A stretch of 64,000 nt of DNA from Chitinophagaceae bacterium (GCA_043760535.1 JAYUOV010000001.1:1221-65220), one strand, 5' to 3'; positions 14,720 to 46,017 are shown, counted from the stretch's first letter. Made by a program: numbers and translations. The notes: generated by a model from the letters alone, not told the origin.

Positions 14720-14742
14720 AGTAAATGAACGCTAAACACTAA

Positions 14743-15768
14743 ATGGAGAAAATAACCAACATAGAAATCAAAAATTTTAAAAGCATTAAGTACGTTGCAA
14801 TGAATAATTGTAAACGGATTAATGTTTTTGTTGGGCCGCCGAATGTTGGGAAGAGTAATGTGCTGGAGGCATTGGGTTTATTTATGTTGGGGAATATAAA
14901 CGATGTTGATCTTAGAGAGCTTCTAAGGTTTGAGAACTATAGCAATTTGTTTTACAACAATAATTTCAATACAAGTATCGAGATTAATCTTGACGGGAAT
15001 GAAAAAATTGATATATCCATAAAAAAGAGAGAGGTTCTTGTTTGGTCAAGTTCTAACAAGATGTCTTTTAAAATGCAAGTGCCACTAGACAATTTTAAAA
15101 TAAACGTTTGGGAGCATGGCGTGGGAAGTGAAGGTTACGACCAACAAGAAAGACTAAACATTAAGAAGTATTCTTTCAAAGAAGAAGGGGAAGCATTTTC
15201 ACTTGAGTACAAAAAGGAATTAGATGCTCCTTTTGGTGAAAATTTAGCAGATGTAATTAAATCTAACGAAGAGTTTAAAAAGGAGGTTATCGAAATATTC
15301 AGGGCTTATCAACTTAAATACGGTACTGATGAAAATGGTAAAATTAGAATTGTTAAAGAGCATGTAGATCAGCAAGTAGTGATTTTTCCTTACAAACAAA
15401 TGGCGGATACTTTACGTCGCCTCATTTTTTATAAAGCAGCAATAGCCTGTAATAGAGATACAGTGCTGCTGTTTGAAGAACCCGAATCACACATGTTTCC
15501 CCCATACATTTCAAAATTCACATCCGATATCATACACGACGCAAATAACAACCAATATTTCATTGCCACACACAGCCCCTATGTTTTAAACGATTTAATG
15601 GAAGATGCCAGAGAAGATTTAGCCATTTTTCTTGTTGACTATAAAAATGGCGAAACATTGATACATAAAATGAGCGACGCCGATATGCATGAAGCCTATC
15701 AGTTTGGGTACGACTTTTTTCTTAACATGAAAAATTTTATGCCCACAGACTCCCATGAAAAAGTATGA
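14743..15768 (+). CDS. ABC-type (AAA_15/AAA_21-like, OLD/RecF-like) ATPase
   Basis: Walker A GPPNVGKS (aa 31-38), signature-like MADTLRR, Walker B VLLFEEPESHMFP, and H-loop IATHSP. It starts 23 bp after the nuoF stop and is visibly more AT-rich than the flanking nuo genes. Confidence 0.75.
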   Translation: MEKITNIEIKNFKSIKYVAMNNCKRINVFVGPPNVGKSNVLEALGLFMLGNINDVDLRELLRFENYSNLFYNNNFNTSIEINLDGNEKIDISIKKREVLVWSSSNKMSFKMQVPLDNFKINVWEHGVGSEGYDQQERLNIKKYSFKEEGEAFSLEYKKELDAPFGENLADVIKSNEEFKKEVIEIFRAYQLKYGTDENGKIRIVKEHVDQQVVIFPYKQMADTLRRLIFYKAAIACNRDTVLLFEEPESHMFPPYISKFTSDIIHDANNNQYFIATHSPYVLNDLMEDAREDLAIFLVDYKNGETLIHKMSDADMHEAYQFGYDFFLNMKNFMPTDSHEKV

Positions 15769-16309
15769 TGAAAGTTGGTGGATGCACTTTGTGCCGGAAT
15801 GTTATTTTGATACAGTTCTTTTAAAAAGGTTGCTGGGAACTAACAAACGGGTTTTACATGTGCATGGGTGCAACAATGTGATAAACAAATTGAAAGGAAA
15901 GTTTTTGAATGATGATTTCGGTGTGGGATTGATTGATAAAGATAAAATTGAAATAGATTACTTAAAAGAAAGTGAAGTTGTTAGGGAAGTGGATGGTTTA
16001 ATAATTTGGAAAAACAAAATAAAAATGCATTTTGTTTTTCAATTGAACCCACCAATAGAAAAATGGCTTATTAAGATTTTGAATGATGAAGGTTTAAAAA
16101 TTGAAAACTTTGGATATCCTTCGGAATTCAAAAAATTGAAGAAAGGGATCAAGGATGATATTGATGACGAAAACGATATCAAACTTAATAAACTGGTTGA
16201 TGCTATTATTGCAACCAATTGCGAAACAATCAGGGTGTTTAAAGCATCGCTAATGTATTTAAAGGAAAAAAATTACGCCGCCGATATAAACGAATTGAAA
16301 AATGTCTGA
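15755..16309 (+). CDS. small TOPRIM-like protein (DUF4435/DUF4276-like), partner of the ATPase
   Basis: 184 aa. FVPE(15)CYFD(19)TVLL, then HVHGCNNV, then GLID(61)KD(63)K give an E...DxD arrangement with TOPRIM-like spacing. It overlaps the ATPase gene by 14 nt and the nuoG start by 8 nt. Confidence 0.45.
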   Translation: MKKYDESWWMHFVPECYFDTVLLKRLLGTNKRVLHVHGCNNVINKLKGKFLNDDFGVGLIDKDKIEIDYLKESEVVREVDGLIIWKNKIKMHFVFQLNPPIEKWLIKILNDEGLKIENFGYPSEFKKLKKGIKDDIDDENDIKLNKLVDAIIATNCETIRVFKASLMYLKEKNYAADINELKNV

Positions 16310-17402
16310 ACCAACACCATTATTTAAAGTCACCATCGACAACATTACCGTGGAAGTACCCGCGGGTACCACTATTTTGCAGGCTGCCCGTAAGGTAGGC
16401 GGCGAAGTGGCTCCACCCGCTATGTGCTTTTACACACCGTTGCAAGGCAGCGGTGGTAAATGCCGCACCTGCCTGGTAGAAGTAAGCAAAGGCAGCGAAA
16501 AAGATCCACGCCCCATGCCCAAGCTGGTGGCAAGCTGCCGCACTACAGTTATGGATGGTATGGAAGTAAAAAATATTACCAGCGAAAAAGTGATAGATGC
16601 CAGAGCCGGAGTGGTAGAATTTTTATTGATAAATCACCCATTGGATTGCCCTGTTTGCGATCAGGCAGGAGAATGCCATTTGCAGGATTTGGGTTATCAG
16701 CATGGAAAAGAAGGTACACGGTACGAATTTCAGCGCCGCACTTTTAAAAAGCATAATCTTGGCCCGTACATTCAGCTCCACATGACCCGCTGTATTATGT
16801 GTTTCCGCTGTGTTTTTACTGCCGATCAGGTTACCCAAAAAAGAGTACACGGTATATTAAGCCGTGGCGACCATGCAGAAATTGCTACTTACATAGAAAA
16901 AAGCCTCGACAACGATTTTATAGGCAATGTAATAGATGTTTGCCCTGTGGGAGCCTTAACAGACAGAACATTTCGCTTTAAAAACAGGGTTTGGTTTACC
17001 AAACCTGTAGATGCCCACCGTGATTGTGAAAAATGCTGCGGGAAAACTACTTTGTGGCTTCGTGGCGACGAAGTTTTTAGGGTTACCGCCCGTAAAGATG
17101 AGTGGGGCGAAATTATTAATACAGAGGAAGGCATACCAGGATGGATTTGTAACGAATGCAGGTTCGAAAAAAAGAAAGTAAGCGATTGGACAATAGAAGG
17201 CCCAACCAAAGTAAGCCGACATTCCGTTATTTCGCAGGGTCATTACGAGGTGTTGCAAAAGCCAAAAGAAGTGTTATACGATGTACTCACCACCCACAAG
17301 CCAAGGCTACTAATGGATATCCATAGCGTAAGCGAAGTAAACAAACCCAAAACCGAACTGAGCCAGATTAGTGGCCCGGCACACTCAACCGATTTTAAAT
17401 AA
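16302..17402 (+). CDS. nuoG: NADH-quinone oxidoreductase subunit G (short Bacteroidota form)
   Basis: N-terminal 2Fe-2S ferredoxin (CFYTPLQGSGGKCRTCLVE), HPLDCPVCDQAGECHLQD, and CIMCFRCV...CPVGAL. Confidence 0.9.
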   Translation: MSEPTPLFKVTIDNITVEVPAGTTILQAARKVGGEVAPPAMCFYTPLQGSGGKCRTCLVEVSKGSEKDPRPMPKLVASCRTTVMDGMEVKNITSEKVIDARAGVVEFLLINHPLDCPVCDQAGECHLQDLGYQHGKEGTRYEFQRRTFKKHNLGPYIQLHMTRCIMCFRCVFTADQVTQKRVHGILSRGDHAEIATYIEKSLDNDFIGNVIDVCPVGALTDRTFRFKNRVWFTKPVDAHRDCEKCCGKTTLWLRGDEVFRVTARKDEWGEIINTEEGIPGWICNECRFEKKKVSDWTIEGPTKVSRHSVISQGHYEVLQKPKEVLYDVLTTHKPRLLMDIHSVSEVNKPKTELSQISGPAHSTDFK

Positions 17403-28309: not shown

Positions 28310-28550
28310 TTCAGAGTTACTAGTCTCTCGTAGTTTTGATTTTGTTTTTTTTTCTATTTTTTGCTTGCCCCGGTAAAAATTAGTGGCTTCTTGAGGTGAA
28401 ACCTAGCAAAAAAGGTGCCCTAATGGAGCGACATTTGATATTTTTTTTAATCTCCAAGTATTACCGTACACCGTTCAGGTGTGTGCTTGTATCTGGCTTT
28501 TATACTCTGAATAATAACCGGTTTCAGTTTTCAAGGTTAGGAGTTCTGAG
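28310..28550 (+). repeat. ~240-bp dispersed repeat, copy A (degenerate ends)
   Basis: Shares the blocks CTCG[CT]AGTTTTGATT, GCCCTnATGGAGCGACATT, GGCTTTTATACTCTGAATAATAACCGGTTTCAG and GGTTAGGAGTTCTGA with copies B-D. Confidence 0.8.
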
Positions 28551-28693
28551 TATGGAGAAAAAGAAGAAGAACATACTTGCCACCAACAAAGTAAACCCTA
28601 ACGCTATCGGAAGCCATTTTGTAGCAGATTTTATGTTGGCTGTTTTTTTTAAATGAACACAAAGTGTTTTGTAAAATTTCTTTTCTTTACCGA

Positions 28694-29188
28694 ATGATTC
28701 ACGACCAAACCACTTTTAAGCAGGCAGCCGAAATGCTGGCACAGCAAGGCTTTACCATCGTTAAGCAGGATGCAGAACGCCCATGGGGCGGCTTTTATGT
28801 AATAGATGAAGCACAGGCCGCACAGTTTGCCGCTTATTATTTCCCCCTCGAAAATTTTGATGAGCTAAAGATTACAGAAAAGCTCAGCCCCAAAATTTTA
28901 ATGGTGGCACCCAATAAAAGATTAAGCTGGCAATACCACCACCGCCGTGCCGAAATATGGAAATGTATTGGGGGCACTGCAGCCGTAGCCACTAGCGATA
29001 CTAACGATGAAGAGGAACAACAAATACTGCAGCCAGGCGATATTATTAAATTGTATCAGGGCAAACGCCACCGCCTTATTGGCTTGGATACTTGGGGCGT
29101 TATAGCCGAAATTTGGCAACATACCGATCTTGAAAACCCTAGCGATGAAGACGATATTGTTCGGGTTTCGGACGATTTTGGCCGGTAA
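28694..29188 (+). CDS. cupin-fold protein (type II phosphomannose-isomerase C-terminal domain-like)
   Basis: RPWGGFYVID ... LSWQYHHRRAEIWKCIGG ... GKRHRLIGLDTWGVIAEIWQ is the cupin metal-site pattern. The start is set at the internal ATG 28694. Confidence 0.7.
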   Translation: MIHDQTTFKQAAEMLAQQGFTIVKQDAERPWGGFYVIDEAQAAQFAAYYFPLENFDELKITEKLSPKILMVAPNKRLSWQYHHRRAEIWKCIGGTAAVATSDTNDEEEQQILQPGDIIKLYQGKRHRLIGLDTWGVIAEIWQHTDLENPSDEDDIVRVSDDFGR

Positions 29189-29203
29189 GCACATCCGTTA
29201 ATT

Positions 29204-29454
29204 TCAGAACTCCTTACCCCTCGCAGTTTTGATTGCGTAATTTTTCTTTTTTTGCCAGCCCCGCCTGCCCCGATGAATATCGGTGGATTATTTCGGGGCG
29301 GAACCCAGCGAAAGCCTTGCCCTGATGGAGCGACATTGGCGAACGTTTTGAATCCCGAAGCATTTCGGGACTCCATTCAACTGGCTGCTACTATCCGGCT
29401 TTTTAGACTGCGAATAATAAGCTGTTTCAGGTCAAAGGGTAAGGAGTTCTGAAT
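29204..29454 (+). repeat. 251-bp dispersed repeat, copy B (reference copy, perfect 17-bp terminal inverted repeats)
   Basis: The 5' end TTCAGAACTCCTTACCC (29204-29220) and the 3' end GGGTAAGGAGTTCTGAA (29438-29454) are exact reverse complements. Internal hairpins are GCCCCGA..TCGGGGC and CCCGAAGCATTTCGGG. Confidence 0.85.
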
Positions 29455-29821
29455 TTATTACCACAACTTCTGCAAGCAGCCATTTACTGTTTGCATCTTA
29501 GCCTTCCGTAACGTTGCATTTTCTTTTACACAATGCAATGTTGGTTGTAACGTGGCTTTGCCAACCATGTGGTATTTTACACAAACTCTATAATGTGCCG
29601 GCTTTACCAATATGCCCAATTGGGTTGTGGCTGTTACTGCTTTTTTATTTTTCGTTCTTAAATCTGCCCCAGTTTGCTGCTTTGGCAGCTTTGCTTTGGG
29701 GCACCCAAAAGGCTGCGAGGGCGAAGGCTAAAAGGGTAGAAGGTATATGGTATAAGGTAAATGGTGATGGGTAATGTGTTTCGTAAAAAAGGTAAAATTA
29801 TTTGTATAGAATATATTGTAA

Positions 29822-30072
29822 TTCAATTTTTTGATTGAATCATTTTTCTCTTAAACCTAGCGAAAACCTTGCCCTGATAGAATGGAATGGAGCCTCATAA
29901 TACTGTGTGGATTTAATAATATGCCCTTGTTCCTCCTTCCTTATCAAAGACTATATCAGCCATTCTTCTTCTATATTAAGACGAGTTGCATAAGGCGGAT
30001 GCGGCTACTACTATTGCGCTTTTTATACTACGAATAACAAGCGGTTTCAGATCTCAGGGTAAGTTGTTCTGA
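29822..30072 (+). repeat. dispersed repeat, copy C (divergent middle)
   Basis: CAATTTTTTGATTGAATCATTTTTCTCTT, AACCTAGCGAAAACCTTGCCCTGATAGAATGGAATGGAGCC and GCGCTTTTTATACTACGAATAACAAGCGGTTTCAGATCTCAGGGTAAGTTGTTCTGA align with copy B. The GCCCCGA hairpin module is absent. Confidence 0.7.
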
Positions 30073-30099
30073 GGGTATTAAGTTGGAGTGTAGTTTTTT

Positions 30100-30140
30100 A
30101 AAAAAGAAGGGGCAACTTTATGATGCCCCTTCTTTTATTT
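30100..30140 (-). terminator. bidirectional hairpin terminator downstream of clpC
   Basis: AGAAGGGGCA-loop-TGCCCCTTCT flanked by an A-run and a T-run. Confidence 0.7.
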
Positions 30141-30151
30141 CAACTGTATGT

Positions 30152-32737
30152 TTAAACAACAGTTGTGTCTATCTCTTTTACTGCACCTTGTTTAAATGTG
30201 AAAGTAATTTTCTGATTTTCTTTATCTAGATTACCTACCAGCACATCGCCGTTTTTAATGGTCATGTTTAGTATTTCATCGGCCAGCGGATCTTCTAGGT
30301 ATTTCTGAATAGCCCTGTGCAGTGGCCTTGCGCCAAACTGGCTGTCGTAGCCTTTCTCAGCTATAAAATCTTTAGCATCTGCAGATAATTCTAACGAGAA
30401 ACCAAGGGCATTCATCCGTTTTAATACATTCTTCATCAGTATATCTATGATGTCGAAAATATTTTCTTTGGTAAGGCTGTTAAAGATGATTACATCATCA
30501 ATTCGATTGAGAAATTCCGGACTGAATGTGCGTTTCAGGGCTTTTTCTATTACCGCTTTGTTGTTCTCGTCTATATTGGTTTGGCGGTTAGCTGTGGCAA
30601 AACCTACGCCATCACCAAAATCTTTCAACTGCCGTGCACCGATATTCGATGTCATGATGATCATCGTGTTTTTAAAGTTGATTTTACGGCCAAGGCCATC
30701 GGTTAGCTGGCCATCATCTAGCACCTGCAACAGAATATTGTAAATATCCGGATGGGCTTTTTCAATCTCATCCAGCAGGATTACGCTATAAGGTTTGCGG
30801 CGCACTTTTTCAGTTAGCTGTCCACCTTCTTCGTAACCTACATAGCCGGGAGGAGCTCCTATTAAACGGCTTACGCTGAATTTTTCCATGTATTCACTCA
30901 TATCTATACGTATGAGTGCATCTTCACTATCAAACATGTATTTAGCCAGCGACCGGGCCAATTCTGTTTTACCAACACCCGTTGGGCCAAGAAAAATAAA
31001 TGTACCGATGGGCTTTTTAGGATCTTTTAAACCTACACGGTTACGTTGTATGGCTTTTACCACTTTTGTAATCGCCTCGTTTTGGCCTACCACCATGCCC
31101 ATCATGTCTTCGTTCATTTTACGAAGCTTCTCCGTTTCCGCCTGCACCATGCGTTTTACAGGTATGCCGGTCATCATGCTTACCACTTCGGCAATGGCTT
31201 CGTCGTTTATAGGAAACCGTTTGTTTTTGCTGTCTTCTTCCCACGCGGCTTTTGCGGCTTCCAATTGTTCGGCTAGGCGTTTTTCGGCGTCACGTAAAGA
31301 GGCGGCCTCTTCAAAACGCTGACTTTTTACCACTTTATTTTTCTCCAGTTTTATATCTTCTATTTTCTTTTCCAGATCTAAAATATTCTCTGGAACGTTA
31401 ATATTTTTAAGGTGAACCCTTGCACCTACTTCATCCATTACATCAATGGCTTTGTCGGGCAAAAGTCTGTCGGTCATGTAGCGGTCGCTCAGTTTTACAC
31501 AGGCTTCTATGGCGGCCGGGCTATAGTCCACATTGTGGTACTCTTCGTACTTGCTTTTAATATTGGTAAGTATTTCAATAGCTTCTTCCACACTTGGCTG
31601 CTCTACCAAAACCTTTTGAAAACGACGATCTAACGCTCCATCTTTCTCTATATACTGGCGGTATTCATCCAGTGTGCTGGCGCCTATGCATTGTAGTTCG
31701 CCACGGCTTAGGGCTGGTTTAAAAATATTGCTGGCATCTAGTGAGCCGCTTGCTCCGCCTGCACCAACTATTGTATGTATTTCATCAATAAACAAGATAA
31801 CATCCCGGTTTTTTTCCAGTTCGTTCATAATGGCTTTCATCCTTTCTTCAAACTGGCCACGGTATTTGGTACCGGCTACTAAAGCCGCCAAATCTAAACT
31901 CACAACCCTTTTATCAAACAGTACACGGCTTACTTTACGTTGTACGATTCTTAGGGCTAGGCCTTCTACAATGGCCGTTTTACCCACGCCGGGCTCGCCT
32001 ATTAAAATGGGATTGTTCTTTTTACGGCGGCTTAAAATCTGCGACACTCTTTCTATTTCCTGCTCACGGCCTACTATTGGGTCCAGGGTTCCGGCCTCGG
32101 CCATCTTAGTAATATCTCTGCCAAAATTATCAAGTACGGGCGTTTTACTTTTTGCATTGGCCTGCTGCTGTTGCTGCCTGCTTGCACCTTTACCCGGCTG
32201 ATTGCCAAAACCACCTTTTCTTTCTTCTTCAAAATCGTCGTCATCGTCGCCGGTATATTCCGATTTTGTGGGATTGTCGGGGCTTTTTACCATGCCCTGT
32301 TCGTTGCGAAAAGCATCATAATCCACACCGTATTGCTGGCCTAATATTTGAGAAGCAATGTTCTCTTTGTTTTTGAGAATACTCATCATTAAATGTTCGC
32401 TTTCTACAAACTGGCTTTTTAAGGCCTTTGCCTCTAACACTGTTACCCGTATTACCTTCTCGGCCTGTTTGGTAAGTGGTAGGCTATTAATGTTAGCGAT
32501 GTTTTTACCTGTTTTATCCTTTACAGCTATTTCCACTTCTTTACGCAATTCAAAAAGGTCCACGTTGAATTGTTTAAGGATTCTTATGGCAGTGTTTTCG
32601 TCGTCACGAATCAATCCTAACAAGAGGTGTTCAATACCGATAAAGTCATTGCCCAATCGCAAAGCTTCTTCGCGGCTATAACTGATGATTTCTTTTACCT
32701 GGGCTGAAAAATTATTATCCATAGTTGTTATTTTCAT
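30152..32737 (-). CDS. clpC: ATP-dependent Clp protease ATP-binding subunit ClpC-type (class I AAA+ chaperone)
   Basis: Double Clp_N repeat, two Walker A motifs (GEPGVGKT, GPTGVGKT), a UVR-like linker, and a C-terminal D2-small domain. Confidence 0.9.
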   Translation of the reverse strand: MKITTMDNNFSAQVKEIISYSREEALRLGNDFIGIEHLLLGLIRDDENTAIRILKQFNVDLFELRKEVEIAVKDKTGKNIANINSLPLTKQAEKVIRVTVLEAKALKSQFVESEHLMMSILKNKENIASQILGQQYGVDYDAFRNEQGMVKSPDNPTKSEYTGDDDDDFEEERKGGFGNQPGKGASRQQQQQANAKSKTPVLDNFGRDITKMAEAGTLDPIVGREQEIERVSQILSRRKKNNPILIGEPGVGKTAIVEGLALRIVQRKVSRVLFDKRVVSLDLAALVAGTKYRGQFEERMKAIMNELEKNRDVILFIDEIHTIVGAGGASGSLDASNIFKPALSRGELQCIGASTLDEYRQYIEKDGALDRRFQKVLVEQPSVEEAIEILTNIKSKYEEYHNVDYSPAAIEACVKLSDRYMTDRLLPDKAIDVMDEVGARVHLKNINVPENILDLEKKIEDIKLEKNKVVKSQRFEEAASLRDAEKRLAEQLEAAKAAWEEDSKNKRFPINDEAIAEVVSMMTGIPVKRMVQAETEKLRKMNEDMMGMVVGQNEAITKVVKAIQRNRVGLKDPKKPIGTFIFLGPTGVGKTELARSLAKYMFDSEDALIRIDMSEYMEKFSVSRLIGAPPGYVGYEEGGQLTEKVRRKPYSVILLDEIEKAHPDIYNILLQVLDDGQLTDGLGRKINFKNTMIIMTSNIGARQLKDFGDGVGFATANRQTNIDENNKAVIEKALKRTFSPEFLNRIDDVIIFNSLTKENIFDIIDILMKNVLKRMNALGFSLELSADAKDFIAEKGYDSQFGARPLHRAIQKYLEDPLADEILNMTIKNGDVLVGNLDKENQKITFTFKQGAVKEIDTTVV

Positions 32738-32810
32738 CTTACTGTTGTTACAATATTAACCATTATTTTCGGTTGCAAGTGTGGGGCAATTGCTTATTGT
32801 GTGAATTATT

Positions 32811-32849
32811 TTGATTTGCGATTTTTAGTTTACGATTTGCGATTTACTT
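32811..32849. repeat. GATTTGCGATTT / TACGATTTGCGATTT word array
   Basis: TTGATTTGCGATTTTTAGTTTACGATTTGCGATTTACTT. The same vocabulary occurs at 6201-6236 and 50072-50115. Confidence 0.7.
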
Positions 32850-33118
32850 AATCCGGAGTCGTATATTTTTGAATATAGCTACAAATTTTTAAAGCCGTAT
32901 TTCAATTAACAAGTCATACTGGAAATACATTTTTACATCAATAAAAACAATTAAACCATCAGAAATAAGTAAATAGTTTCATTGATAAATGCAATGCGAT
33001 TTGCAGGTAAAACACAAAATGTTATTCGAATAAATACCAAGAACTAAATTTTAAAAAGAAGGAATTTAAAACTTATCTAAAATAAGACAGTAAAATATCC
33101 AAACTGTTTGCTTAAAAC

Positions 33119-33158
33119 CAATCGTAAATCTGAAATCGTAAATTCAAAATTTTCAATT
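33119..33158. repeat. AATCGTAAATC word array (reverse-complement vocabulary of 32811-32849)
   Basis: CAATCGTAAATCTGAAATCGTAAATTCAAAATTTTCAATT lies immediately upstream of the STAS gene start. Confidence 0.7.
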
Positions 33159-33533
33159 ATGTTCCTCAAAACTGATACCAAAGAAAAATTCCACGAAATA
33201 AGGCTTGCCGAACCCCATCTTGCTGCTAATATGACAGCGGAACTATCTGCTTTGTTGAATCCTTACTTACAAAATGCAGTAAAAAATATAATACTGCAAC
33301 TGACGGATGTGCAGACCATAGATATGGAAGCTGCCGAAGCCTTAGTTTTAATTCAACAAAATTTCTACGATAACGGCGCTTCGTTTGTAATATGCGAAGT
33401 GCAGCCGCAAATAGAAAAATTGCTAGACGAAGCTCAACTACTGGAAACCATGAACATTACCCCAACCCTTAGCGAAGCCTGGGATATTGTTCAGATGGAA
33501 GAAATAGAAAAGGAATTTTTTGATGAAGCATAG
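33159..33533 (+). CDS. STAS-domain protein (anti-sigma-factor-antagonist-like)
   Basis: 124 aa. ILQLTDVQTIDMEAAEALVLIQQNFYDNGASFVICEVQPQIEKLLDEAQL fits the SpoIIAA/STAS layout. The start is set at the internal ATG 33159. Confidence 0.65.
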   Translation: MFLKTDTKEKFHEIRLAEPHLAANMTAELSALLNPYLQNAVKNIILQLTDVQTIDMEAAEALVLIQQNFYDNGASFVICEVQPQIEKLLDEAQLLETMNITPTLSEAWDIVQMEEIEKEFFDEA

Positions 33534-33540
33534 TTCAATT

Positions 33541-33682
33541 GTTCACTTGTTCCTGTAGTTCAGATGTTTCACTTATTCAGATGTTTCACTTGTTCAGATG
33601 TTTCACTTGTTCAGATTTTTCACTTATTCAGATGTTTCAATAGTTCAGATGTTCACTTGTTCAGATGTTTCACTTGTTCATT
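33541..33682. repeat. tandem array of ~8 units of a 17-bp repeat TTCAGATGTTTCACTTG
   Basis: The units directly abut and carry single-base variants (CACTTA/CACTTG, GATG/GATT). The word CACTGTTCAGATGTTT recurs at 24136-24151. Confidence 0.9.
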
Positions 33683-33720
33683 TACAAGCTAGGGAATTCA
33701 ATAATAGATAATATTGAGAA

Positions 33721-33782
33721 TGAGTAAACTTGTGAACTTGTAAACTCGTAAACTTGTGAACGAATTGCATTTGTAAACTTTG
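33721..33782. repeat. period-8 word array AACTTGTG/AACTTGTA/AACTCGTA
   Basis: TGAGTAAACTTGTGAACTTGTAAACTCGTAAACTTGTGAACG...TTTGTAAACTTTG lies just upstream of rnz. Confidence 0.8.
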
Positions 33783-33805
33783 AAAACTAACAAAACACAT
33801 TACCA

Positions 33806-34711
33806 TTGTTTGGCTTAACGATACTCGGAAACAACTCCGCTATACCAGCCTTCGACAGGCATCCTACATCACAGGCACTCACCTTTGACGACCAGGTATT
33901 GCTTATAGATTGCGGCGAAGGCACGCAGATGCAGATTGTTAAATACAAAATCCGTGGTAGCCGTATCAATCATATTTTCATCAGCCATCTGCATGGCGAT
34001 CATTATTTTGGCCTGATAGGCCTGATTACCAGCATGGGTCTCAGCGGCCGAAGTGTGCCGCTGCATATTTACGGACCAGCTATTCTTAAAAAAGTAATTG
34101 ATATCCACCTGGAAGCTGCAAGTACCAACCTGCCCTTTACCATACATTTTCATGCCCACCCAGATAGTTTTAGCAAAATAATGGACTACGACAAAATGGA
34201 CGTGTGGTGTTTTCCGGTACAGCACCGCATACCTTGTTTCGGTTTTGTTTTCAGAGAAAAAAAGATGCCCCGTAAAATAAACGCCGAAGCTGTAAAACAG
34301 TACCAGATACCGTTCAGTTTTTATGCCAGCCTTCAAAAAGGCGAAGATTATACCACCACCGATGGCGGAACTGTAAAAAATGAATTGGTAACCATTAAAA
34401 ATACCGAAGGCCGCTCTTACGCCTTTAGTGCCGATACCATTTACGATACCAGCCTTTGCAGCTATTTTGATGGCGTAGATATGCTGTACCACGAAAGCAC
34501 TTACATGAAAATGGATGAAGACAAAGCCACCCAACGTTTCCACAGCACCAGCGAACAAGCGGCCAAAATTGCATTGCAAGCCACGGCCAAACGCTTACTG
34601 ATAGGCCATTTCAGCAGCCGTTACGAAGACCTGACGGAAATGCTGAGAGAAGCCACCGAAGTTTTTGAAAACACGGAACTGGCGTTGGAAGGGGTAACGT
34701 ATGTGGTGTGA
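33806..34711 (+). CDS. rnz: ribonuclease Z
   Basis: LLIDCGEGTQ and ISHLHGDHYFGL (metallo-beta-lactamase HxHxDH) with the short-form RNase Z length. Confidence 0.9.
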   Translation: MFGLTILGNNSAIPAFDRHPTSQALTFDDQVLLIDCGEGTQMQIVKYKIRGSRINHIFISHLHGDHYFGLIGLITSMGLSGRSVPLHIYGPAILKKVIDIHLEAASTNLPFTIHFHAHPDSFSKIMDYDKMDVWCFPVQHRIPCFGFVFREKKMPRKINAEAVKQYQIPFSFYASLQKGEDYTTTDGGTVKNELVTIKNTEGRSYAFSADTIYDTSLCSYFDGVDMLYHESTYMKMDEDKATQRFHSTSEQAAKIALQATAKRLLIGHFSSRYEDLTEMLREATEVFENTELALEGVTYVV

Positions 34712-34827
34712 TATCAGGGGGAATAAATTTTCTATTTTTTTTGAAATTGGACGAATCCGTGCTATTGATTCTAAACCGGGGTCGGTGTTTTAACCTACCA
34801 CGGCGGCCAGATAGCCATGACGACTAT

Positions 34828-35850
34828 TTATCCAAGCACTTCCTTTTTCATCAGCCCTTTCTCCACTATTGCCTCCCAAAATGCTGGCGAAATTTTCTTT
34901 GTGGCCATGGCTATATTACCTTTTACTTTTTCTGGTTTGGTTGTGCTTAATGCCACACTTACAATGCCAGGAATATGGAAGCCAAAATTAAAACAGGCTT
35001 CGGCGGGCTGTATGCCAAACTGCTGGCAAATGGTAAAAAAATCAGTTCGCCATTGGTATAAAGCCTGTCCAACTTCTGTAGTGTTATCCACATCTACATA
35101 GTTATAAAAATTGCTGCCAATTAAAAAGCCGCCGTTAAAAACAGCTGAGTTTATTACAGCTACGCCTTTTTGATGGAGTGCTGCAATAAATGCAATCAAT
35201 TCTTTAGGATGGCTGTACAGGGTAAGGCTGTTGGCTATCATCACCCAATCCAGTTCTACATCGGCAGCTATGCGCTGTATTACTTTCCATTGCTTACTGC
35301 CTACGCCTACACCCATTATTTTGCCTGCTGCTTTCAATTCTGTTAAGGCTTTGTAAGCACCTAAAATATCATTGTATCGCTTGATTTCGTCAGCCGCATC
35401 GGTAGCTGCTGCCAGGTATTCGTCGGGGTCGTGTACAGAGCCTAGTTGCGAACTGTAATCTCCCAGCAATTCGTTCCCCTGATGAAAACATTCCAGTATG
35501 CCTTCGTAGCTTATTTTTTGCACGGCATCTTTTTTTATATCCATCCAAATACCTTTTTCAAAAGTGGGTTCCGGCGTGGTAAGTTCCGTTTGGTACCAGG
35601 CCAGTTTATTACTTATGATGACCTCGTTTGGCTTCACGCCCAGTTCTTTTAATGCTTTGCCCAGCATTTCTAAAGATAGCCCAGCACCATACTTTCCGGC
35701 ACTGTCAAAAACGGGAGTGCCGGGGCTGTTTTCTACACATGCCCTTACAATGGCCAGCTTGGTTTCGTAAGTGGTGGCTTCGTAAATATTGCCTAGGCAG
35801 CTGGTGCCAAATATTACCGGAGGCAGTATTATTTTCTTTTGTTCGTTCAT
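34828..35850 (-). CDS. aldo/keto reductase, likely L-fucose (D-threo-aldose) 1-dehydrogenase by context
   Basis: AKR pattern (GTSCLGN, FDSAGKYG, GVGVGSKQ) next to the lactonase-type amidohydrolase, mutarotase and fucP. The start is set at the internal ATG 35850. Confidence 0.8.
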   Translation of the reverse strand: MNEQKKIILPPVIFGTSCLGNIYEATTYETKLAIVRACVENSPGTPVFDSAGKYGAGLSLEMLGKALKELGVKPNEVIISNKLAWYQTELTTPEPTFEKGIWMDIKKDAVQKISYEGILECFHQGNELLGDYSSQLGSVHDPDEYLAAATDAADEIKRYNDILGAYKALTELKAAGKIMGVGVGSKQWKVIQRIAADVELDWVMIANSLTLYSHPKELIAFIAALHQKGVAVINSAVFNGGFLIGSNFYNYVDVDNTTEVGQALYQWRTDFFTICQQFGIQPAEACFNFGFHIPGIVSVALSTTKPEKVKGNIAMATKKISPAFWEAIVEKGLMKKEVLG

Positions 35851-35864
35851 TTTACATTGAAAAT

Positions 35865-36713
35865 TTATAGCCTGTAAAAACGGGTGGCAGTATTGCAAAA
35901 AATGTTTTGTTGTTCATCTACCGAAAAAGATGAAAAATATTGCTGTACAATTTGCAGCACCTGCTTATAACTGCCTGCCACTTGGCATACTGGCCAGTCG
36001 CTGCCATACATTATTCTTTTGGTGCCAAATGTATTTACTACGGCATCTATATATGGCGTAAAATCTTCGGGCTTCCAGATATTACAATCAGCTTCGGTTA
36101 CCATTCCACTTACTTTACAATACACATTATTATGCCGGGCAATTTTGGCCATATCCTCCTGCCATTCGTCTATCAATCCGGCCTTAATATATGGCTTGGC
36201 AATATGGTCAATTACAAAGGGTTGATTGGGGAATTTTTGCACCAATTCTGTTGCAGCTTTTAGGTGTTTGGGAAAAATTAGAATATCGTAAGTAAAGCCA
36301 TGTTTTTCTAAAGCAGCAATACCTTTTAAAAAGTTGGACTGCAGCATAAATTCAGGCTCCTCACTTTGCAGTACATGCCTAAATCCCTTGATGATATTGT
36401 ATTGTGCATAATGGGCCAATCTTTCATGGATATTCTCAGCTGTTAAATTTACCCAGCCTACAATGCCTTTTATAAATGAATTTTCTTTGGCCAGTTGTAA
36501 TAAAAAATCTGTTTCTGCTTCTGTTTGATCAGCTTCTACAGCTATGCAGCCTGCAATATTATTTTCTAACAAAATAGGCGCTAAATCTTGTGGTAAAAAG
36601 TCTTTACGGATTACCGACATTTCATCATCCATCCAGCTTTGTTTTGCAGTATTGTAATGCCAGAAATGCTGGTGGCTGTCTATTCGGATATTTTCTGTTA
36701 GTGGTGATGGCAT
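35865..36713 (-). CDS. amidohydrolase-2 family protein, likely L-fucono-1,5-lactonase
   Basis: IDSHQHFW at the N-terminus, VIDHIAKP and MYGSDWPV are amidohydrolase_2 motifs. The gene sits in the fucose cluster. Confidence 0.8.
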   Translation of the reverse strand: MPSPLTENIRIDSHQHFWHYNTAKQSWMDDEMSVIRKDFLPQDLAPILLENNIAGCIAVEADQTEAETDFLLQLAKENSFIKGIVGWVNLTAENIHERLAHYAQYNIIKGFRHVLQSEEPEFMLQSNFLKGIAALEKHGFTYDILIFPKHLKAATELVQKFPNQPFVIDHIAKPYIKAGLIDEWQEDMAKIARHNNVYCKVSGMVTEADCNIWKPEDFTPYIDAVVNTFGTKRIMYGSDWPVCQVAGSYKQVLQIVQQYFSSFSVDEQQNIFCNTATRFYRL

Positions 36714-36901
36714 GTTGCTGAAATTTGCTAGATTTTTACTTATCCTACCCAGAAGGGCAGGATTAGGAAATTAGCTGTTTCCTTTTTTTATTCCCCAAGG
36801 TCTCCAGTTCATTCTCTCAAATTCAATTAAACTTATTTCCTAATCCAAGGCTTCAGCCTTGGGTCTGTAAAAGGTTGAAGCAGCAGAAATTAGCTATGGA
36901 T

Positions 36902-37237
36902 TTAAAATGTAAAAATTTTATCCATAAAAATCCACTTTTCTCCTTCTTTAGCCCAGGGTAATGCCAGTTGAAATTTCCACATTAATTGTTCCCATTCCTG
37001 CACTTTTGGGTTGGTGGCGTCCATAGCTGCTTTGTGTTCAAAACTAAAAGTTTTATCAGTATCCATTATCATAAAAAGCCGATTGCCGGTGCGGTAAATT
37101 TCCATATTGGTAATACCTGAATCGCTGATGCTTTTCTTAATTTCTGGCCAACAATTTTCGGCTTTATGCCAATGTTCGTATTCGGCAATCAGGGCCGGGT
37201 CGTCTTTTAAATCAAGTGCAAGGCAGTAGCGTTTCAT
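36902..37237 (-). CDS. L-rhamnose mutarotase-family (RhaM/DUF718) sugar mutarotase
   Basis: MKRYCLALDLKDDPALIAEYEHWHK ... MEIYRTGNRLFMIMD ... VQEWEQLMWKFQ. Confidence 0.85.
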   Translation of the reverse strand: MKRYCLALDLKDDPALIAEYEHWHKAENCWPEIKKSISDSGITNMEIYRTGNRLFMIMDTDKTFSFEHKAAMDATNPKVQEWEQLMWKFQLALPWAKEGEKWIFMDKIFTF

Positions 37238-37258
37238 ACTTAGGTATAGGTAGGTGTT

Positions 37259-38548
37259 TTAATGGGGTTCCGTTTCTTTATAGCCTTTCAATCCAAAAAA
37301 TAAAATCACTGCGAAGCAGGCAAGTGGCACAAAATAGCCCAATTGGATATTGCCTGTTATATCTGCAATCTGTCCAAGTATGGGTGGCAAAATTGCTCCG
37401 CCAACAATCGACATAATAATGAGGCTTGAACCTGCTTTTGTATCGTTACCTAGGCCGTTTATACCAAGAGCAAAAATAGTGGGAAACATAATAGACATAA
37501 AAAATGCAATGCCTATAACTGCGTAAAGCGTTACGATTCCTGATGCAAAAATGGTAACCAAACATAGACCCATGCACATCATTGCGTACAGGGCAAGCAG
37601 TTTTGGCGGTGCAATGTATTTCATAAGAAAAGTGCCTGCAAACCGGCCAATCATGAAGGCTAACCCTGCCGCACCAGCGTAATAAGAGGCCTCTTTTTCG
37701 GTAATGTTTGCTGCCTTTGTAGCAAACAAAATCAAAAAGCTCATAATGCAAACCTGTGCACCCACATAAAAAAACTGTGCCACCACTGCCCAGGTTAAAT
37801 GGCGGTGTTTAAATGCATGGAAAAATCCCTTGCCGGACTCGGCTCCATCATCTTTTTTATCGGGCAATTTTGAAAAGTAGAAAATGGCAGCCATAAATAA
37901 AATGGTAGCTCCTAAAATAATATACGGAAGTTTTACCGTACTTGTTTCAGAAAGCAGGTATGCGGTTTTTGCTTCTCCAGTCATTTTAGCAAGTTCAGCA
38001 TCCGTAACAGGGTTTTGCGACAAAATAAATTTACCACCAACAATCGGCGCCACAAATGCTGCAAGGCCGTTAAATGATTGGGCTAGGTTAAGCCTTTGGG
38101 TAGCAGTATCGGGGTTGCCCAAAATAGTGGCATATGGGTTAGCAGCTGTTTCTAAAATGGTAAGGCCACAGGCTACCACAAATAATGCCCCCAAAAAGAA
38201 TGCATACTGCATGGTATTGGCGGCGGGTACAAACAAAAAGCACCCAATAGCAAATAGTGCCAGCCCTATGAGTATGCCAGATTTATAGCCATATTTTTTC
38301 ATAATGATACCCGCAGGAATGGCCATTAGAAAATAGGCTATAAACACAGCCGAGTCTACAAGTGAAGCCTGTAATGTACTTAAGCTAAATGCCCTACGTA
38401 AATGTGGAATCAGTATTGGGTCGAGGTTGTGTACAAAGCCCCAGAAAAAAAACAGGCTTGTTACCAGTATAAAAGGAAGCAGAAAACTTCCTTTTGGTTT
38501 TTCTGCCGCAGACACAGATGTTACAGAGGGTGGGACAAGCAAGGCCAT
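37259..38548 (-). CDS. fucP: L-fucose:H+ symporter permease (MFS)
   Basis: 12-TM MFS with FFFWGFVHNLDPILIPHLRRAFSL, the FucP N-terminal signature. Confidence 0.9.
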   Translation of the reverse strand: MALLVPPSVTSVSAAEKPKGSFLLPFILVTSLFFFWGFVHNLDPILIPHLRRAFSLSTLQASLVDSAVFIAYFLMAIPAGIIMKKYGYKSGILIGLALFAIGCFLFVPAANTMQYAFFLGALFVVACGLTILETAANPYATILGNPDTATQRLNLAQSFNGLAAFVAPIVGGKFILSQNPVTDAELAKMTGEAKTAYLLSETSTVKLPYIILGATILFMAAIFYFSKLPDKKDDGAESGKGFFHAFKHRHLTWAVVAQFFYVGAQVCIMSFLILFATKAANITEKEASYYAGAAGLAFMIGRFAGTFLMKYIAPPKLLALYAMMCMGLCLVTIFASGIVTLYAVIGIAFFMSIMFPTIFALGINGLGNDTKAGSSLIIMSIVGGAILPPILGQIADITGNIQLGYFVPLACFAVILFFGLKGYKETEPH

Positions 38549-38655
38549 CGTTAAAAATGTTTAGGGCTAAAAAGCAATTAAAAAATTTATGGAGCCTCTA
38601 AAATATGGAATAAATTTACAAGTGTATATGTAACGCTTGAACAACGAACGAATTG

Positions 38656-38778
38656 GCACCACAAGAACTCAAAAACCACCCAAGAGGTGGCTTTTGACTT
38701 CTTGTGGTGCTTTTGCTGCTTAGCAAACAAGTCCGGGAATCGAATCTACCTTTTGATAGACTTGTTCTTGATTCCTCC
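38656..38778 (-). other. partial duplicate of the tRNA-Glu 3' part plus a copy of its terminator core, embedded in a 24-bp hairpin
   Basis: 38734-38746 (CGGGAATCGAATC) and 38769-38778 (TGATTCCTCC) match the tRNA-Glu T-arm and anticodon-stem segments at 39083-39109. The hairpin GCACCACAAGAACTCAAAAACCACC-CAAGAG-GTGGCTTTTGACTTCTTGTGGTGC (38656-38710) contains AAAACCACC..GGTGGCTTTT, like the terminator at 39039-39064. Confidence 0.4.
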
Positions 38779-38792
38779 TATTTTTATTTCAT

Positions 38793-38978
38793 CTAATAAT
38801 TTTTAATTATTTCTTTTCCATAAGAGGTTTTGTACCATTTTTCTATTCTTTTTGTTTCAATTCTATTAAAGGTATGCGCTAAAAAAATTGCATTAAAAGG
38901 TCTGTAAGGTCTTGTAATAACCTCGTATCCACTTTCATGCCTAGGTAGCCTATCAGCTATGTCGTGGGTGAGACCATC
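38793..38978 (-). pseudogene. C-terminal fragment of an rve-type DDE transposase/integrase (IS481/IS3-like)
   Basis: Reverse translation gives DGLTHDIADRLPRHESGYEVITRPYRPFNAIFLAHTFNRIETKRIEKWYKTSYGKEIIKNY*. ITRPYRP..(x)..FNR.ETK resembles the TRPY[HR]PQTNGKVERFNRTLK core end. No catalytic domain lies upstream. Confidence 0.35.
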
Positions 38979-39038
38979 ATATATTCAGTTTGTTTTTTCA
39001 CTACTCAATGCATAGTTGGCGAATACAGGTAATAATTA

Positions 39039-39064
39039 AAAAACCACCTCGGAAGGTGGTTTTA
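39039..39064 (-). terminator. terminator of tRNA-Glu
   Basis: AAAACCACC-TCGGAA-GGTGGTTTT. On the minus strand it is followed by TTTTTTAATT, 8 nt after the tRNA 3' end. Confidence 0.6.
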
Positions 39065-39071
39065 ATTGTTT

Positions 39072-39146
39072 TGGTAGAGCGTACGGGAATCGAACCCGTG
39101 ATTCCTCCGTGAAAGGGAGGTGTCTTAACCCCTTGACCAACGCTCC
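39072..39146 (-). tRNA. tRNA-Glu (anticodon TTC), CCA encoded
   Basis: The reverse complement is GGAGCGTTGGTCAAGGGGTTAAGACACCTCCCTTTCACGGAGGAATCACGGGTTCGATTCCCGTACGCTCTACCA. It has an acceptor stem (with G1-U72), an anticodon stem CCTCC/GGAGG with loop CTTTCAC, and a T arm ACGGG-TTCGATT-CCCGT. Confidence 0.85.
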
Positions 39147-39400
39147 GTTTTTCTTTATGGGCTGCAAAAATAGGGTCTCAATCCTTTTGGGCAAATTTAT
39201 TTTTTACAGTTATGGCTTTTTTTATGGCAAAGCCAATACCACAAAGGAATTAAAACAACCGGTTGTTAAACGTTTTGGACGTAAAATACCCTAATAACAA
39301 GCAGATTAGTTAAAATATCATGTAATTATTCTTACCCAAAGGACTTATTTTCGCCGAACAAACAATGAAACACAAATCCTCAAATTTTTAATTTTTAGTT

Positions 39401-40411
39401 ATGAGCGTAAAAGTAGCAATCAATGGTTTTGGCCGCATAGGCCGCCTGGTATATCGTCAGATATTTAATATGGAAGGTATTGAAGTAGTAGCCATCAACG
39501 ACCTTACCTCCCCGGCCGTATTGGCGCATTTGCTTAGATACGATAGTGCACAGGGCCGTTTTGAAAAAAATGTAACCGCCGGCGAAAGCAGTATCAATGT
39601 AGAAGGCCACGAAATAAAAATATATGCCCAAAAAGATCCTGCACAGATACCATGGGGTGCCCATGATGTGGATGTGGTATTAGAGTGTACCGGTTTTTTT
39701 GCCGATAAAGACAAATGCGAAGCCCATATTACCGCAGGTGCCAAACGTGTAGTAATTTCTGCACCGGCCACCGGCGATTTAAAAACGATTGTTTTTAACG
39801 TAAACCATACCATTTTAGATGGCAGCGAAACTGTAATCAGTTGTGCAAGCTGCACCACCAACTGCCTTGCACCAATGGCACAGGTACTTGAAAATACCTA
39901 CGGTATTGTAAACGGCCTGATGACGACCATCCATGCCTATACCAACGATCAGAATACACAGGATGCTCCACACGCCAAAGGCGACCTTCGCCGTGCAAGG
40001 GCTGCTGCACAGAACATTGTGCCCAACAGTACTGGTGCCGCCAAAGCCATTGGTTTGGTGTTGCCTGCATTAAAAGGCAAGCTTGATGGTAGTGCACAAC
40101 GTGTACCAACCATCACCGGTTCACTTACTGAACTTACAGTGGTACTTGGTAAAAAAACCACCGTGGCAGAAGTAAATGCAGCGATGAAAGCCGCATCTAA
40201 CGAAAGCTACGGTTATACAGAAGATGAAATTGTAAGCACCGACATTATTGGTACTACTTACGGTTCATTGTTTGATGCAACTCAAACACGGGTACAAACC
40301 GTAGGCGATGTGCAATTAGTACGTACCGTTAGCTGGTACGATAATGAAATGAGCTATGTTAGCCAGTTGGTTCGTACCGTTAATTATTTTGCCGGATTAA
40401 TCAGCAAGTAA
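39401..40411 (+). CDS. gap: type I glyceraldehyde-3-phosphate dehydrogenase
   Basis: [21 protein letters not shown] (catalytic Cys) and WYDNEMSY. Confidence 0.95.
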
Positions 40412-40428
40412 TTTTACAATATCCCAAT

Positions 40429-40465
40429 AAAAAAAGTGCTGTCTTGTAAACAGCACTTTTTTTTA
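40429..40465 (+). terminator. Rho-independent terminator after gap
   Basis: AGTGCTGT-CTTGTAA-ACAGCACT followed by T8. Confidence 0.7.
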
Positions 40466-40504
40466 GTACAAGACTGAAACCAAATAATAGAACATAAAAG
40501 GTTA

Positions 40505-41191
40505 CTAATAAGACACTTCTGTATTTGTGCTGATGTTGTAAGCAAAAGATTTGTTATTAACCCAATCCTTGTAGCCGAAAATATTTGCAGATAGGACGAT
40601 TGATTCTACCATTTTTCCATTTTCAATTTTTGTATGTATGTCACCCACTCTCCAGGTGCTAAGTTTTACTGAATATGTAAGTGTAGTAGTACCCGGTGTA
40701 AACACTTTAAACTCAATGAAATTGGGTGATGTAACTACCTGCCCCAAAGCTGATATTTTGGTAAATGCAATGGAGTTAATATCTAAAGATTTGGTAAACT
40801 CAAAATAAAAAGCCGGTAAGGCCATGGGTTGTGTAAGAATTGAAGCATTAAACGGCATACACCTGTAAGTGCCTGCTACTATACCGCCCGTAGTACCCGA
40901 AACGGTATAGGTAATGGAATCGGTAGCCATGGCTGTAAAAACACTCTGCCATTTGCTGCCATCATGATAAGCAGGGGTGTTTGTTTTTCTATTGTAAATA
41001 AGCAATCCGGCACTTGGGTTGGTTACTAAAGTGGTGTCGTTAACCCGTGGTAGCATCAGACCTTTATTGGTACTGGATACATCTAAAGCGGCATTTGCAG
41101 ACGGTGTGGTGGTGCCAATGCCTACACCTTGTGAGGTAACTAAGTTTACACATAATACCAGCGAAACAACAGCGATAAAATTTCTTTTCAT
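40505..41191 (-). CDS. secreted protein with the Bacteroidota GIGTTTP...LPRV N-terminal module, function unknown
   Basis: Signal peptide, then QGVGIGTTTPSANAALDVSSTNKGLMLPRVNDTTLVTNPSAGLLIYN...YHDGSKW, a module recurrent in Bacteroidota surface proteins. The start is set at the internal ATG 41191. Confidence 0.55.
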   Translation of the reverse strand: MKRNFIAVVSLVLCVNLVTSQGVGIGTTTPSANAALDVSSTNKGLMLPRVNDTTLVTNPSAGLLIYNRKTNTPAYHDGSKWQSVFTAMATDSITYTVSGTTGGIVAGTYRCMPFNASILTQPMALPAFYFEFTKSLDINSIAFTKISALGQVVTSPNFIEFKVFTPGTTTLTYSVKLSTWRVGDIHTKIENGKMVESIVLSANIFGYKDWVNNKSFAYNISTNTEVSY

Positions 41192-41497
41192 GATTTCAGG
41201 GTTTATATAGTTTAAAAATAAAAATAGCATATCACACGAAACCGAACAGCCATGAAACGGTGTTTTTTAAGAAATTTTGAGGAATAAACAGCCAATAGTT
41301 AATACAACAGGCAACCGGAAAGAAGCCAACACATTTAAAGCATTTTTGGTTTTGTTCATTTCAGTATTTCACTTTTTCAATCTTCTTATATGGCTTTTTA
41401 CGAAAACTACAAGTTTTCAAAAAAAGCCCATATACACTTACATTGCAGTTGCATAATTTTTTTAAATAGCTAAGTAATAATCAACAACATTAACATC

Positions 41498-42697
41498 ATG
41501 ACTAAATTTTCAGATTTCAACTTTGCCGGCGAAAAAGCCCTTGTTCGTGTAGATTTCAATGTGCCGCTGAACAGCGATTTTGAAATTACCGACGATACCC
41601 GCATGGCCGGTACGATACCTACCATTAAAAAAATACTGGGAGATGGTGGTAGTGTTATACTTATGAGTCATTTTGGCCGCCCAAAAGATGGTCCTGCCGA
41701 AAAATATTCGCTAAAGCATTTGGTAAAACACCTGCATGCATTATTGGGAGGCGAAACCAAAGTGTTTTTTGCCAACGACTGCATTGGGGAACAGGCTTTT
41801 CTTACAGCCAATATGCTGGGCAAGGGCGAAGTGTTGTTGTTGGAAAACCTTCGTTTTTATAAAGAGGAAGAAAAAGGCGACGAAGCTTTTGCAGAAAAAC
41901 TTAGCAAATTGGGAACCGTGTATGTAAACGATGCATTTGGCACCGCCCACCGTGCCCATGCAAGCACAGCCGTGATTGCAAAATATTTTCCTGCAGATAA
42001 AAAAATGTTTGGCCTGCTGATGGAAGCAGAAGTGATGAGTGCCGAAAAAGTAATGCACCAATCGCAAAAGCCATTTACAGCCATCATCGGCGGGGCAAAA
42101 GTTTCAGACAAAATATTAATTATAGAAATGCTGCTGGACCGAGCCACCGACATCATCATTGGCGGCGGTATGGCTTATACTTTTATGAAAGCCCGTGGCG
42201 GAGAAATCGGCAACAGCCTTTGCGAAGAAGATCGTCTGCAAACAGCTATTGACCTGCTGGCCAAAGCCACCGAAAAAGGTGTAAGCATCCACCTGCCGGA
42301 AGACAGTGTGATTGCTGACAAATTTGCCGCCGATGCCAATACCGAAGTACGCCCAAGCGATGCCATACCAGCCGGCTGGATGGGATTGGACATTGGCCCC
42401 AAAGCCTGTGGCATTTTTGCAGAAGTTATCCGCCGCAGCAAAACCGTTTTATGGAATGGCCCGATGGGTGTTTTTGAAATGGAAAAATTTCAGGCAGGAA
42501 CCAAGGCCATAGCAGTGGCGGTGGCGGAAGCTACTACCAACGGCGCTTTTAGCCTTGTTGGCGGCGGCGATAGTGTAAGTGCTGTAAACCAATTCGGCTT
42601 TGCCGACAAAGTAAGCTATGTAAGCACCGGCGGCGGCGCCATGCTGGAATATTTTGAAGGGAAAGTGTTGCCGGGGATAGCGGCGATTGGGGAGTGA
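41498..42697 (+). CDS. pgk: phosphoglycerate kinase
   Basis: [28 protein letters not shown] and GGGDS. Confidence 0.95.
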
Positions 42698-42720
42698 TTT
42701 TTTATGTAGACGACATTCTG

Positions 42721-42760
42721 AAATTTCAGCAACAGTGGTCGGTGAAGACACCGACTACTG
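42721..42760 (+). repeat. REP-like hairpin repeat, copy 1
   Basis: AAATTTCAGCAACAGTGGTCGGTGAAGACACCGACTACTG, with stem GTCGGTG/CACCGAC. Confidence 0.75.
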
Positions 42761-42806
42761 CATTCAACCATTTTTTTAAACATAGAAAACTTAAAAAATT
42801 AGTACT

Positions 42807-46004: not shown

Positions 46005-46017
46005 GATACAAGTTTAT

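Follow-up and report, generated by a model that had tools for sequence, protein, structure and literature searches.

A 64,000-nucleotide stretch of the genome of a Chitinophagaceae bacterium (GCA_043760535.1, JAYUOV010000001.1:1221-65220), referred to here as the window, contains several copies of a short repeat. These copies most likely represent a new family of MITEs (miniature inverted-repeat transposable elements) with 15-bp ends, CAGAACTCCTTACCC, and a 5-bp AANTT target duplication, harbored by an uncultured, soil-type Chitinophagaceae bacterium. We consider it likely that the element is a non-coding DNA transposon of ~235 to 250 bp, immobile by itself and presumably mobilized in trans by a DDE-type transposase. 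A preliminary description of the window had offered two readings of the repeat, as a MITE or as a structured RNA family. The presence of one copy where three relatives have none, the 5-bp duplications, the position of other copies at deletion and rearrangement junctions, and an element with the same ends in a Ferruginibacter metagenome-assembled genome (MAG) argue for mobile DNA and not for an RNA gene. The copies in the window are as follows, with positions counted from its first nucleotide.

Copy A, 28312 to 28548, + strand: 237 bp, degenerate terminal repeats; family match by blastn and profile.
Copy B, 29205 to 29451, + strand: 247 bp, intact; terminal inverted repeats at 29205 to 29219 and 29437 to 29451.
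Copy C, 29807 to 30071, + strand: between a family-2 glycosyltransferase (GT2) gene remnant and the 3' end of clpB; only the ends are recognizable.
Copy D, 48254 to 48487, + strand: 234 bp, left terminal repeat degenerate; blastn and profile match.
Copy E, approximately 47662 to 47780, + strand: between the ABC ATPase gene and gatC; found by nhmmer and sequence.

The full copies A, B, and D are 234 to 247 bp long and non-coding, with blastn identities of 74% (B and D), 70% (A and B), and 68% (A and D) over about 220 to 258 nucleotides. A profile built from these three recovered each of them at E values of 1e-70 to 1e-76, and a 39-nucleotide 3'-end pattern matched exactly the four copies A to D, against an expectation of 0.00 in shuffled sequences. 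The four-copy family of the preliminary description is thus upheld, on the + strand and at essentially the positions given there. Of the four copies to which it had assigned collinear blocks, copy C shares only its first ~60 nucleotides, its last ~80 nucleotides, and a 28-nucleotide block with the others, and its middle is unrelated. Copy E, which was missing from the earlier list, is an old internal fragment whose ends are not recognizable; it covers positions ~105 to 232 of the family hidden Markov model, with a best-matching core at 47677 to 47727 (nhmmer E values of 8e-4 and 3e-5). With this fragment, five copies lie within 64 kb in two clusters, three of them packed into 1.8 kb and two into 0.8 kb. 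Copies A to D are all intergenic, and A, B, and D resemble one another in the DNA next to their left ends. Copy D occupies the divergent spacer between gatC (- strand) and a split TRIC/UPF0126 channel gene (+ strand). That gene consists of two overlapping frames (48570 to 48971 and 48932 to 49186), which represent either a frameshifted pseudogene or a sequencing error. The shared orientation of A to D, also pointed out earlier, holds in the window but is not significant (p about 1/8), and copy E had the opposite orientation before an ~18-kb inversion described below.

The ends of the element are best defined in copy B, where the terminal inverted repeat is exact over 15 bp (CAGAACTCCTTACCC) and extends to 21 nucleotides with one mismatch. 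The refined ends read CAG...CTG, the element proper spans 29205 to 29451, and it is flanked by AATTT on the left (29200 to 29204) and on the right (29452 to 29456). Copy D is likewise flanked by AATTT, at 48249 to 48253 and 48488 to 48492. The Ferruginibacter MAG locus (L007) holds a ~172-bp element (12795 to 12966, - strand) with the same ends, CAGAACCCCTCAATT ... GGATAAGGAGTTCTG, a shortened and different interior, and AACTT on either side. A 21-bp direct repeat, ATTTACTGATTCACCTGATGC, was also observed at this locus, slightly outside the AACTT duplication on both sides. Target-site duplications, which the preliminary description had proposed looking for, were therefore found in all three elements with undisturbed flanks (B, D, and L007); they are 5 bp long in each, with the consensus AANTT. 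This sequence is palindromic except for its center, and the center base is identical in the direct sense within each of the three elements and variable between them. For this reason the outer 5 nucleotides are target duplication and not an extension of the inverted repeat, which revises the perfect 17-bp terminal repeats first reported for copy B: the inverted repeat is there, but its outermost part belongs to the target. Copy A has no duplication (left flank AAGTT, right flank AGTAT), nor does copy C (TTGTA and AGGGT). In A, D, and the L007 element, only part of the inverted repeat is kept. The right end, which contains TAAGGAG, has 0 to 2 mismatches in all copies.

Related loci available for comparison included the following.

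L002, JGI sample 3300083150: UxuA within the same 90%-identity cluster as that of the window.
L122, JGI sample 3300083150: ABC ATPase with 94% protein identity to the window.
L120 and L121, ENA: ABC ATPase with 96% protein identity to the window.
L128, ENA: ABC ATPase with 95% protein identity to the window.
L123 and L006, NCBI GCA_035909255.1: L123 ABC ATPase with 94% protein identity; L006 UxuA in the same 90%-identity cluster.

The closest homologues of FucP, at 80 to 82% protein identity, came from Ferruginibacter and Terrimonas assemblies and Chitinophagaceae MAGs, and two Logan contigs (L001 and L119, run SRR22198272) were identical to parts of the window. Copy B is missing from the orthologous spacer between the cupin and GT2 genes in L002, L120, and L121, where the spacer is uninterrupted and homologous to both flanks of B. 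When B and one AATTT are removed from the window, the remainder aligns without gaps to the three empty sites, which read AAAAT at this point. None of the relatives examined has copy A, C, or D. Copy B is probably the youngest copy.

Copies A, C, and D are located at or near places where the window differs structurally from its relatives. Three features define these places.

GDSL lipase gene 3' remnant, 28554 to 28656, + strand: blastn match to L002 12073 to 12177 and to L120/L121; right side of the deletion at copy A.
GT2 gene remnant, 29468 to 29772, + strand: ~1-kb internal deletion; between copies B and C.
Inverted block of ~18 kb from clpB to gatC, 30147 to 48205, no strand assigned: gene tables and blastn orientation against L120, L121, and L128.

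On the left side of copy A, homology to L121 extends across the uxuA terminator and stops at window position 28306; on the right side, homology with L002, L120, and L121 restarts at ~28549 to 28555, in the last ~100 nucleotides of the GDSL lipase gene. Copy A thus occupies the junction of a ~2-kb deletion to within 5 nucleotides on both sides, the missing DNA being ~2 kb of L121 (Pvc16_N and most of the lipase gene) or ~0.9 kb of L002. The GT2 remnant matches L002 in two pieces, window 29477 to 29574 corresponding to L002 12746 to 12843 and 29597 to 29772 to L002 13839 to 14017, and window 29773 to 30146, which holds copy C, stands in place of 4.4 kb of L002. Four relatives have intact lipase and GT2 genes, and only in the window are these reduced to remnants, so that the state in the window is derived. 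The inverted block contains clpB, a STAS gene, an MBL-fold gene, the fucose genes, gap, pgk, and genes for an S51 peptidase, an adenosyltransferase, and an ABC ATPase, followed by gatC. In L120, L121, and L128 the order is cupin-GT2-gatC-ABC-...-STAS-clpB, and L002, L122, and L123 have a third arrangement. These two types of relative genomes also differ from each other. One junction of the block is near copy C; the other is where homology to L120 ends (window 48205), 48 nucleotides before copy D. The element may have had a causal role in the deletions or the inversion. Inversion by recombination between the right end of C and the left end of D was considered and rejected in that form; copy D has an intact duplication on both sides and therefore looks like a simple insertion.

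Copy E is old and is shared with relatives. Orthologous fragments (profile positions ~105 to 232) occupy the same gatC-ABC spacer in L122, L123, L126, and L127, and the spacer in L120 and L121 holds a shortened form. A further family fragment was found in L122, flanked by the genes for the CobA-type adenosyltransferase and a DUF4349 protein. Because copy E is shared across these lineages, the family is older than their divergence, and the perfect ends and duplication of copy B show that its activity continued afterward. The copy E orthologue of L123 (2546 to 2836, - strand) has acquired a palindrome, TCCCGCAAACTGCGGGA, in place of the CGAACG of other copies, and in the L120/L121 form the central hairpin is replaced by a shorter palindrome, CCGTACGTACGG, indicating that hairpins turn over inside the decaying element.

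Further copies were sought more widely. Searches of about 1.8 Mb from relatives at the family level revealed none elsewhere, blastn against a plasmid collection gave no match, and pattern scans of viral contigs gave none apart from one chance match inside a coding region. The Logan contig L001, equivalent to window ~25.06 to 29.23 kb, ends 35 nucleotides into copy B, which is only a hint that further copies exist. The family seems to be rare and restricted to this lineage; so far it has been seen only in this uncultured Chitinophagaceae lineage and the Ferruginibacter MAG.

No reading frame is conserved between copies, as first noted in the preliminary description, and no protein family matches the element. 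When the open frame of copy B was translated and compared with 1.84 billion representative proteins, a single homologue was returned, a spurious 64-amino-acid open reading frame (ORF) from another assembly (P0008). It is the translation of a B-like copy and covers the left end (FRIPYPS, encoded by TTCAGAATTCCTTACCC) and the CCCGAAGCATTTCGGG hairpin. A 77-amino-acid ORF annotated in L001 spans copy A's 3' half plus the lipase remnant. This ORF and the break of the contig inside copy B are assembly and annotation artifacts caused by the repeat.

We infer a transposase, encoded at another place in the genome and acting in trans, that would recognize the 15-bp ends CAGAACTCCTTACCC ... GGGTAAGGAGTTCTG. 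The element would be inserted at AANTT sites in AT-rich intergenic DNA, and repair of the staggered cut would generate the 5-bp duplication. Copy B is then a recent simple insertion and copy D an older one. Copies A and C would have lost their duplications through deletion or rearrangement of adjacent DNA at one end, and copy E would be an ancient insertion that was inherited by several related lineages and is decaying.

Several results weigh against this interpretation. A transposase-bearing parent with the same termini, which the preliminary description had suggested looking for, did not turn up: no gene for a transposase and no complete insertion sequence bounded by matching ends was found in the window, searched with Pfam, or in about 1.8 Mb of relatives' loci. 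A scan of all loci for pairs of matching ends 0.1 to 4 kb apart gave only copy B itself and a coding coincidence in Pedobacter, and in the searchable literature the end sequences matched unrelated primers only. An empty site is verified for one insertion only, that of copy B. The exact 3'-end pattern (22 fixed positions) had 0 matches in genome and metagenome contig collections, a result that indicates that close copies are rare and not that they are absent, since the pattern is so strict that the P0008 copy would fail it (ATAA versus AAAA). In A, C, and D, the left end has 6 to 9 mismatches to the consensus and the right end 1 to 2, for totals of 21 versus 5, an asymmetry that uniform neutral decay does not predict. 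Finally, when the structure of copy B was threaded on A, B, and D, seven pairs had changed on both sides, compared with 2.4 +/- 1.2 in shuffled sequences. This result, obtained from three sequences with a structure taken from one of them and with two of the seven pairs in the terminal repeat, hints at structural constraint beyond that of a passive repeat.

Some of these points would be accommodated if the element were more than a passive MITE and carried a functional nucleic-acid structure, a possibility that we regard as unlikely. The case for it is the unusual retention of the right end, GGGTAAGGAGTTCTG, the fast decay of the left end, and compensated changes in hairpins, including the seven double-sided pair changes and one internal hairpin that reads CCCGAA..TTCGGG in copy B and P0008 and CCCGTA..TACGGG in L122 and L123. 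Such a hairpin might be needed for mobilization by a still undescribed AANTT-targeting transposase. As a second option, the structure might be a regulatory RNA that the element carries and that was exapted at old sites, for example in the gatC-ABC spacer, in which the hairpin survives in several lineages.

It is similarly improbable that, in place of a dedicated MITE family, the copies are what is left of the ends of a larger mobile element, for example a solo pair of ends from a composite or unit transposon or an internally deleted insertion sequence specific to this genome, or that they are a repeat spread by recombination or gene conversion and not by transposition. Interiors do differ greatly between some copies, with C and the L007 element sharing only the ends of the family; no parent element is known; and the copies are locally clustered. 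However, a common interior of ~240 bp that shows no sign of a transposase frame is present in A, B, D, and E, in the fragments of L122, and in P0008, and 5-bp duplications at three independent sites imply that the short unit itself transposes.

That the copies are paralogous genes for small RNAs or cis-acting structured RNAs (sibling small RNAs), with the shared blocks as functional loops and the terminal repeat as a stem closing the RNA, is very unlikely. Copy B does fold strongly compared with shuffled sequences (z of -5.2), every copy is intergenic and on one strand in the window, and the double-sided and compensated pair changes described above count in its favor. Yet A (z of -0.9) and D (z of -0.1) fold no better than shuffled sequence, leaving copy B as the only one that does. 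The copies had no match in Rfam either at the gathering score or at E values of up to 10, and RNAalifold on A, B, and D gave an unfavorable covariation term of +0.47 and many broken pairs. The two double changes in the terminal repeat affect a part that coevolves in any transposon. In copy A, 14 of the 15 pairs of the terminal stem are kept if G-U pairs are allowed, but with a left arm rich in C and A, transitions produce G-U pairs by composition alone. The preliminary description had proposed that hairpins differ between copies while remaining self-complementary. The hairpins it cited in B and D exist, among several GC-rich hairpins in the element, but the CCGATGAnTATCGG hairpin common to both has identical stems and differs only in the loop, and the others are specific to one copy: within the window the CCCGAAGCATTTCGGG hairpin is intact only in B, and the TTGCA...TGCAA hairpin is specific to D. 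No Bacteroidota -7 box or terminator is conserved among the copies. Block 1 of copy A fits the -7 box TAnnTTTG and was considered as a promoter; the idea was dropped, the box not being kept in B, D, C, or P0008. RNA genes, moreover, are not marked by target duplications, an empty site, and copies at deletion junctions. Relatives are also without the copies at orthologous sites. The structured-RNA reading thus finds no support, and we read the residual structural signal as a constraint on a palindromic, hairpin-rich transposon.

Two further alternatives are the weakest. Elements of the palindrome-associated (PATE) type derived from the single-strand transposons IS200/IS605 lack inverted repeats and target duplications, carry subterminal hairpins, and insert 3' of a fixed tetra- or pentanucleotide, while REP and BIME elements consist of palindromic units of 20 to 40 bp that often alternate in orientation and are associated with RAYT. 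A non-autonomous element of either kind is extremely improbable here: although the copies share one strand in the window, contain GC-rich hairpins, and have similar left flanks in A, B, and D, they have true terminal inverted repeats and direct 5-bp duplications, neither of which IS200/IS605 makes, the unit of ~240 bp is far longer than REP units, copy E was oppositely oriented before the inversion, and Pfam found no TnpA(Y1), TnpB, RAYT, or RAYT-like gene in the window. An integron-cassette arrangement, with genes between direct repeats, was rejected, given that the cupin gene is in the same place in relatives without the repeats.

Interpreted as a MITE family, the copies can be compared with elements of the same kind in other bacteria. 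Bacterial MITEs include the Correia elements of Neisseria, ERIC/IRU of enterobacteria, and Nezha of cyanobacteria. The elements described here resemble bacterial MITEs generally (about 100 to 400 bp) in being non-coding and intergenic, with inverted repeats, short duplications, and strong hairpin potential, and in occurring as several diverged copies with presence/absence differences among relatives. They have the ends CAGAAC...GTTCTG and a 5-bp AANTT duplication, and no sequence similarity to Correia, ERIC/IRU, or Nezha was seen, no comparison aimed at it having been made. Duplications of 4 to 6 bp are made, according to the ISfinder tables, by IS1380, IS1634, the IS2 group of IS3, IS1202, and the Tn3-derived TIMEs, which we take as a lead and not as a test. 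The duplication length of these families agrees with that found here, and TIMEs are also about 250 bp long, but their typical ends (CC..., TG...CA, TGT..., and GGGG...) do not fit CAG...CTG, except loosely for the initial C of IS1634 and IS1380. Within the Bacteroidota, and therefore in the same phylum, elements of the same kind have been described as BrickBuilt, MITE239, and MITE464 of Porphyromonas gingivalis (PMC4596501) and as MITECca01 of Cardinium, whose parent was identified as ISCca4 (PMC9769881); the element described here has no known parent. BrickBuilt is intergenic, with long predicted stem-loops and degenerate or partial copies (PMC4596501). Its ends, GAGACCTTTGCA, are IS5-like (PMC4596501) and unrelated to CAGAACTCCTTACCC, and it differs further in having an internal 23-nucleotide minisatellite.

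Other features of the window were recorded alongside the repeat family. A tandem array of a 17-nucleotide unit, GTTCAGATGTTTCACTT, with about seven copies and a 51-nucleotide super-period, occupies 33534 to 33680, in the spacer between the STAS-domain gene and the MBL/tRNase Z-like gene. At 5703 to 17402, the row of nuo (NADH dehydrogenase) genes is interrupted by unrelated genes: two for Uma2-family endonucleases (6888 to 7631 and 8360 to 9019), one for a DUF2204 nucleotidyltransferase (10526 to 10993), DUF4440 and glyoxalase-like genes (11733 to 12963), and a gene for an AAA_15/AbiEii-like ATPase with a 184-amino-acid partner (14743 to 16309). A Flavo-1 RNA (11523 to 11631, - strand) also lies within this row. 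Short AT-rich repeats in the style of ATTTGCGATTT, GATTTTGGATTTACGATTT, and AAATCACAAATC recur in intergenic spacers of the lineage, at window 6202 to 6244 and 32814 to 32856, at L002 11450 to 11490, and in the gatC-ABC spacers of L120 to L123; they may constitute another family of repeats, far shorter than the first, or a regulatory motif of common occurrence.

Apart from marking deletions and rearrangements, the finding is an ordinary one that concerns a well-known kind of element and raises no new biological question. For the genome at hand, the family explains assembly breaks and spurious small ORF calls, such as the 77-amino-acid frame in L001 and the 64-amino-acid P0008, and it would account for local gene loss, with the lipase and glycosyltransferase genes reduced to remnants beside the copies. 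In comparisons of close MAGs, the copies also serve as dated markers for insertions, deletions, and inversions. MITEs have been little cataloged in the Chitinophagaceae. The defined ends and an AANTT target offer a handle for finding the transposase.

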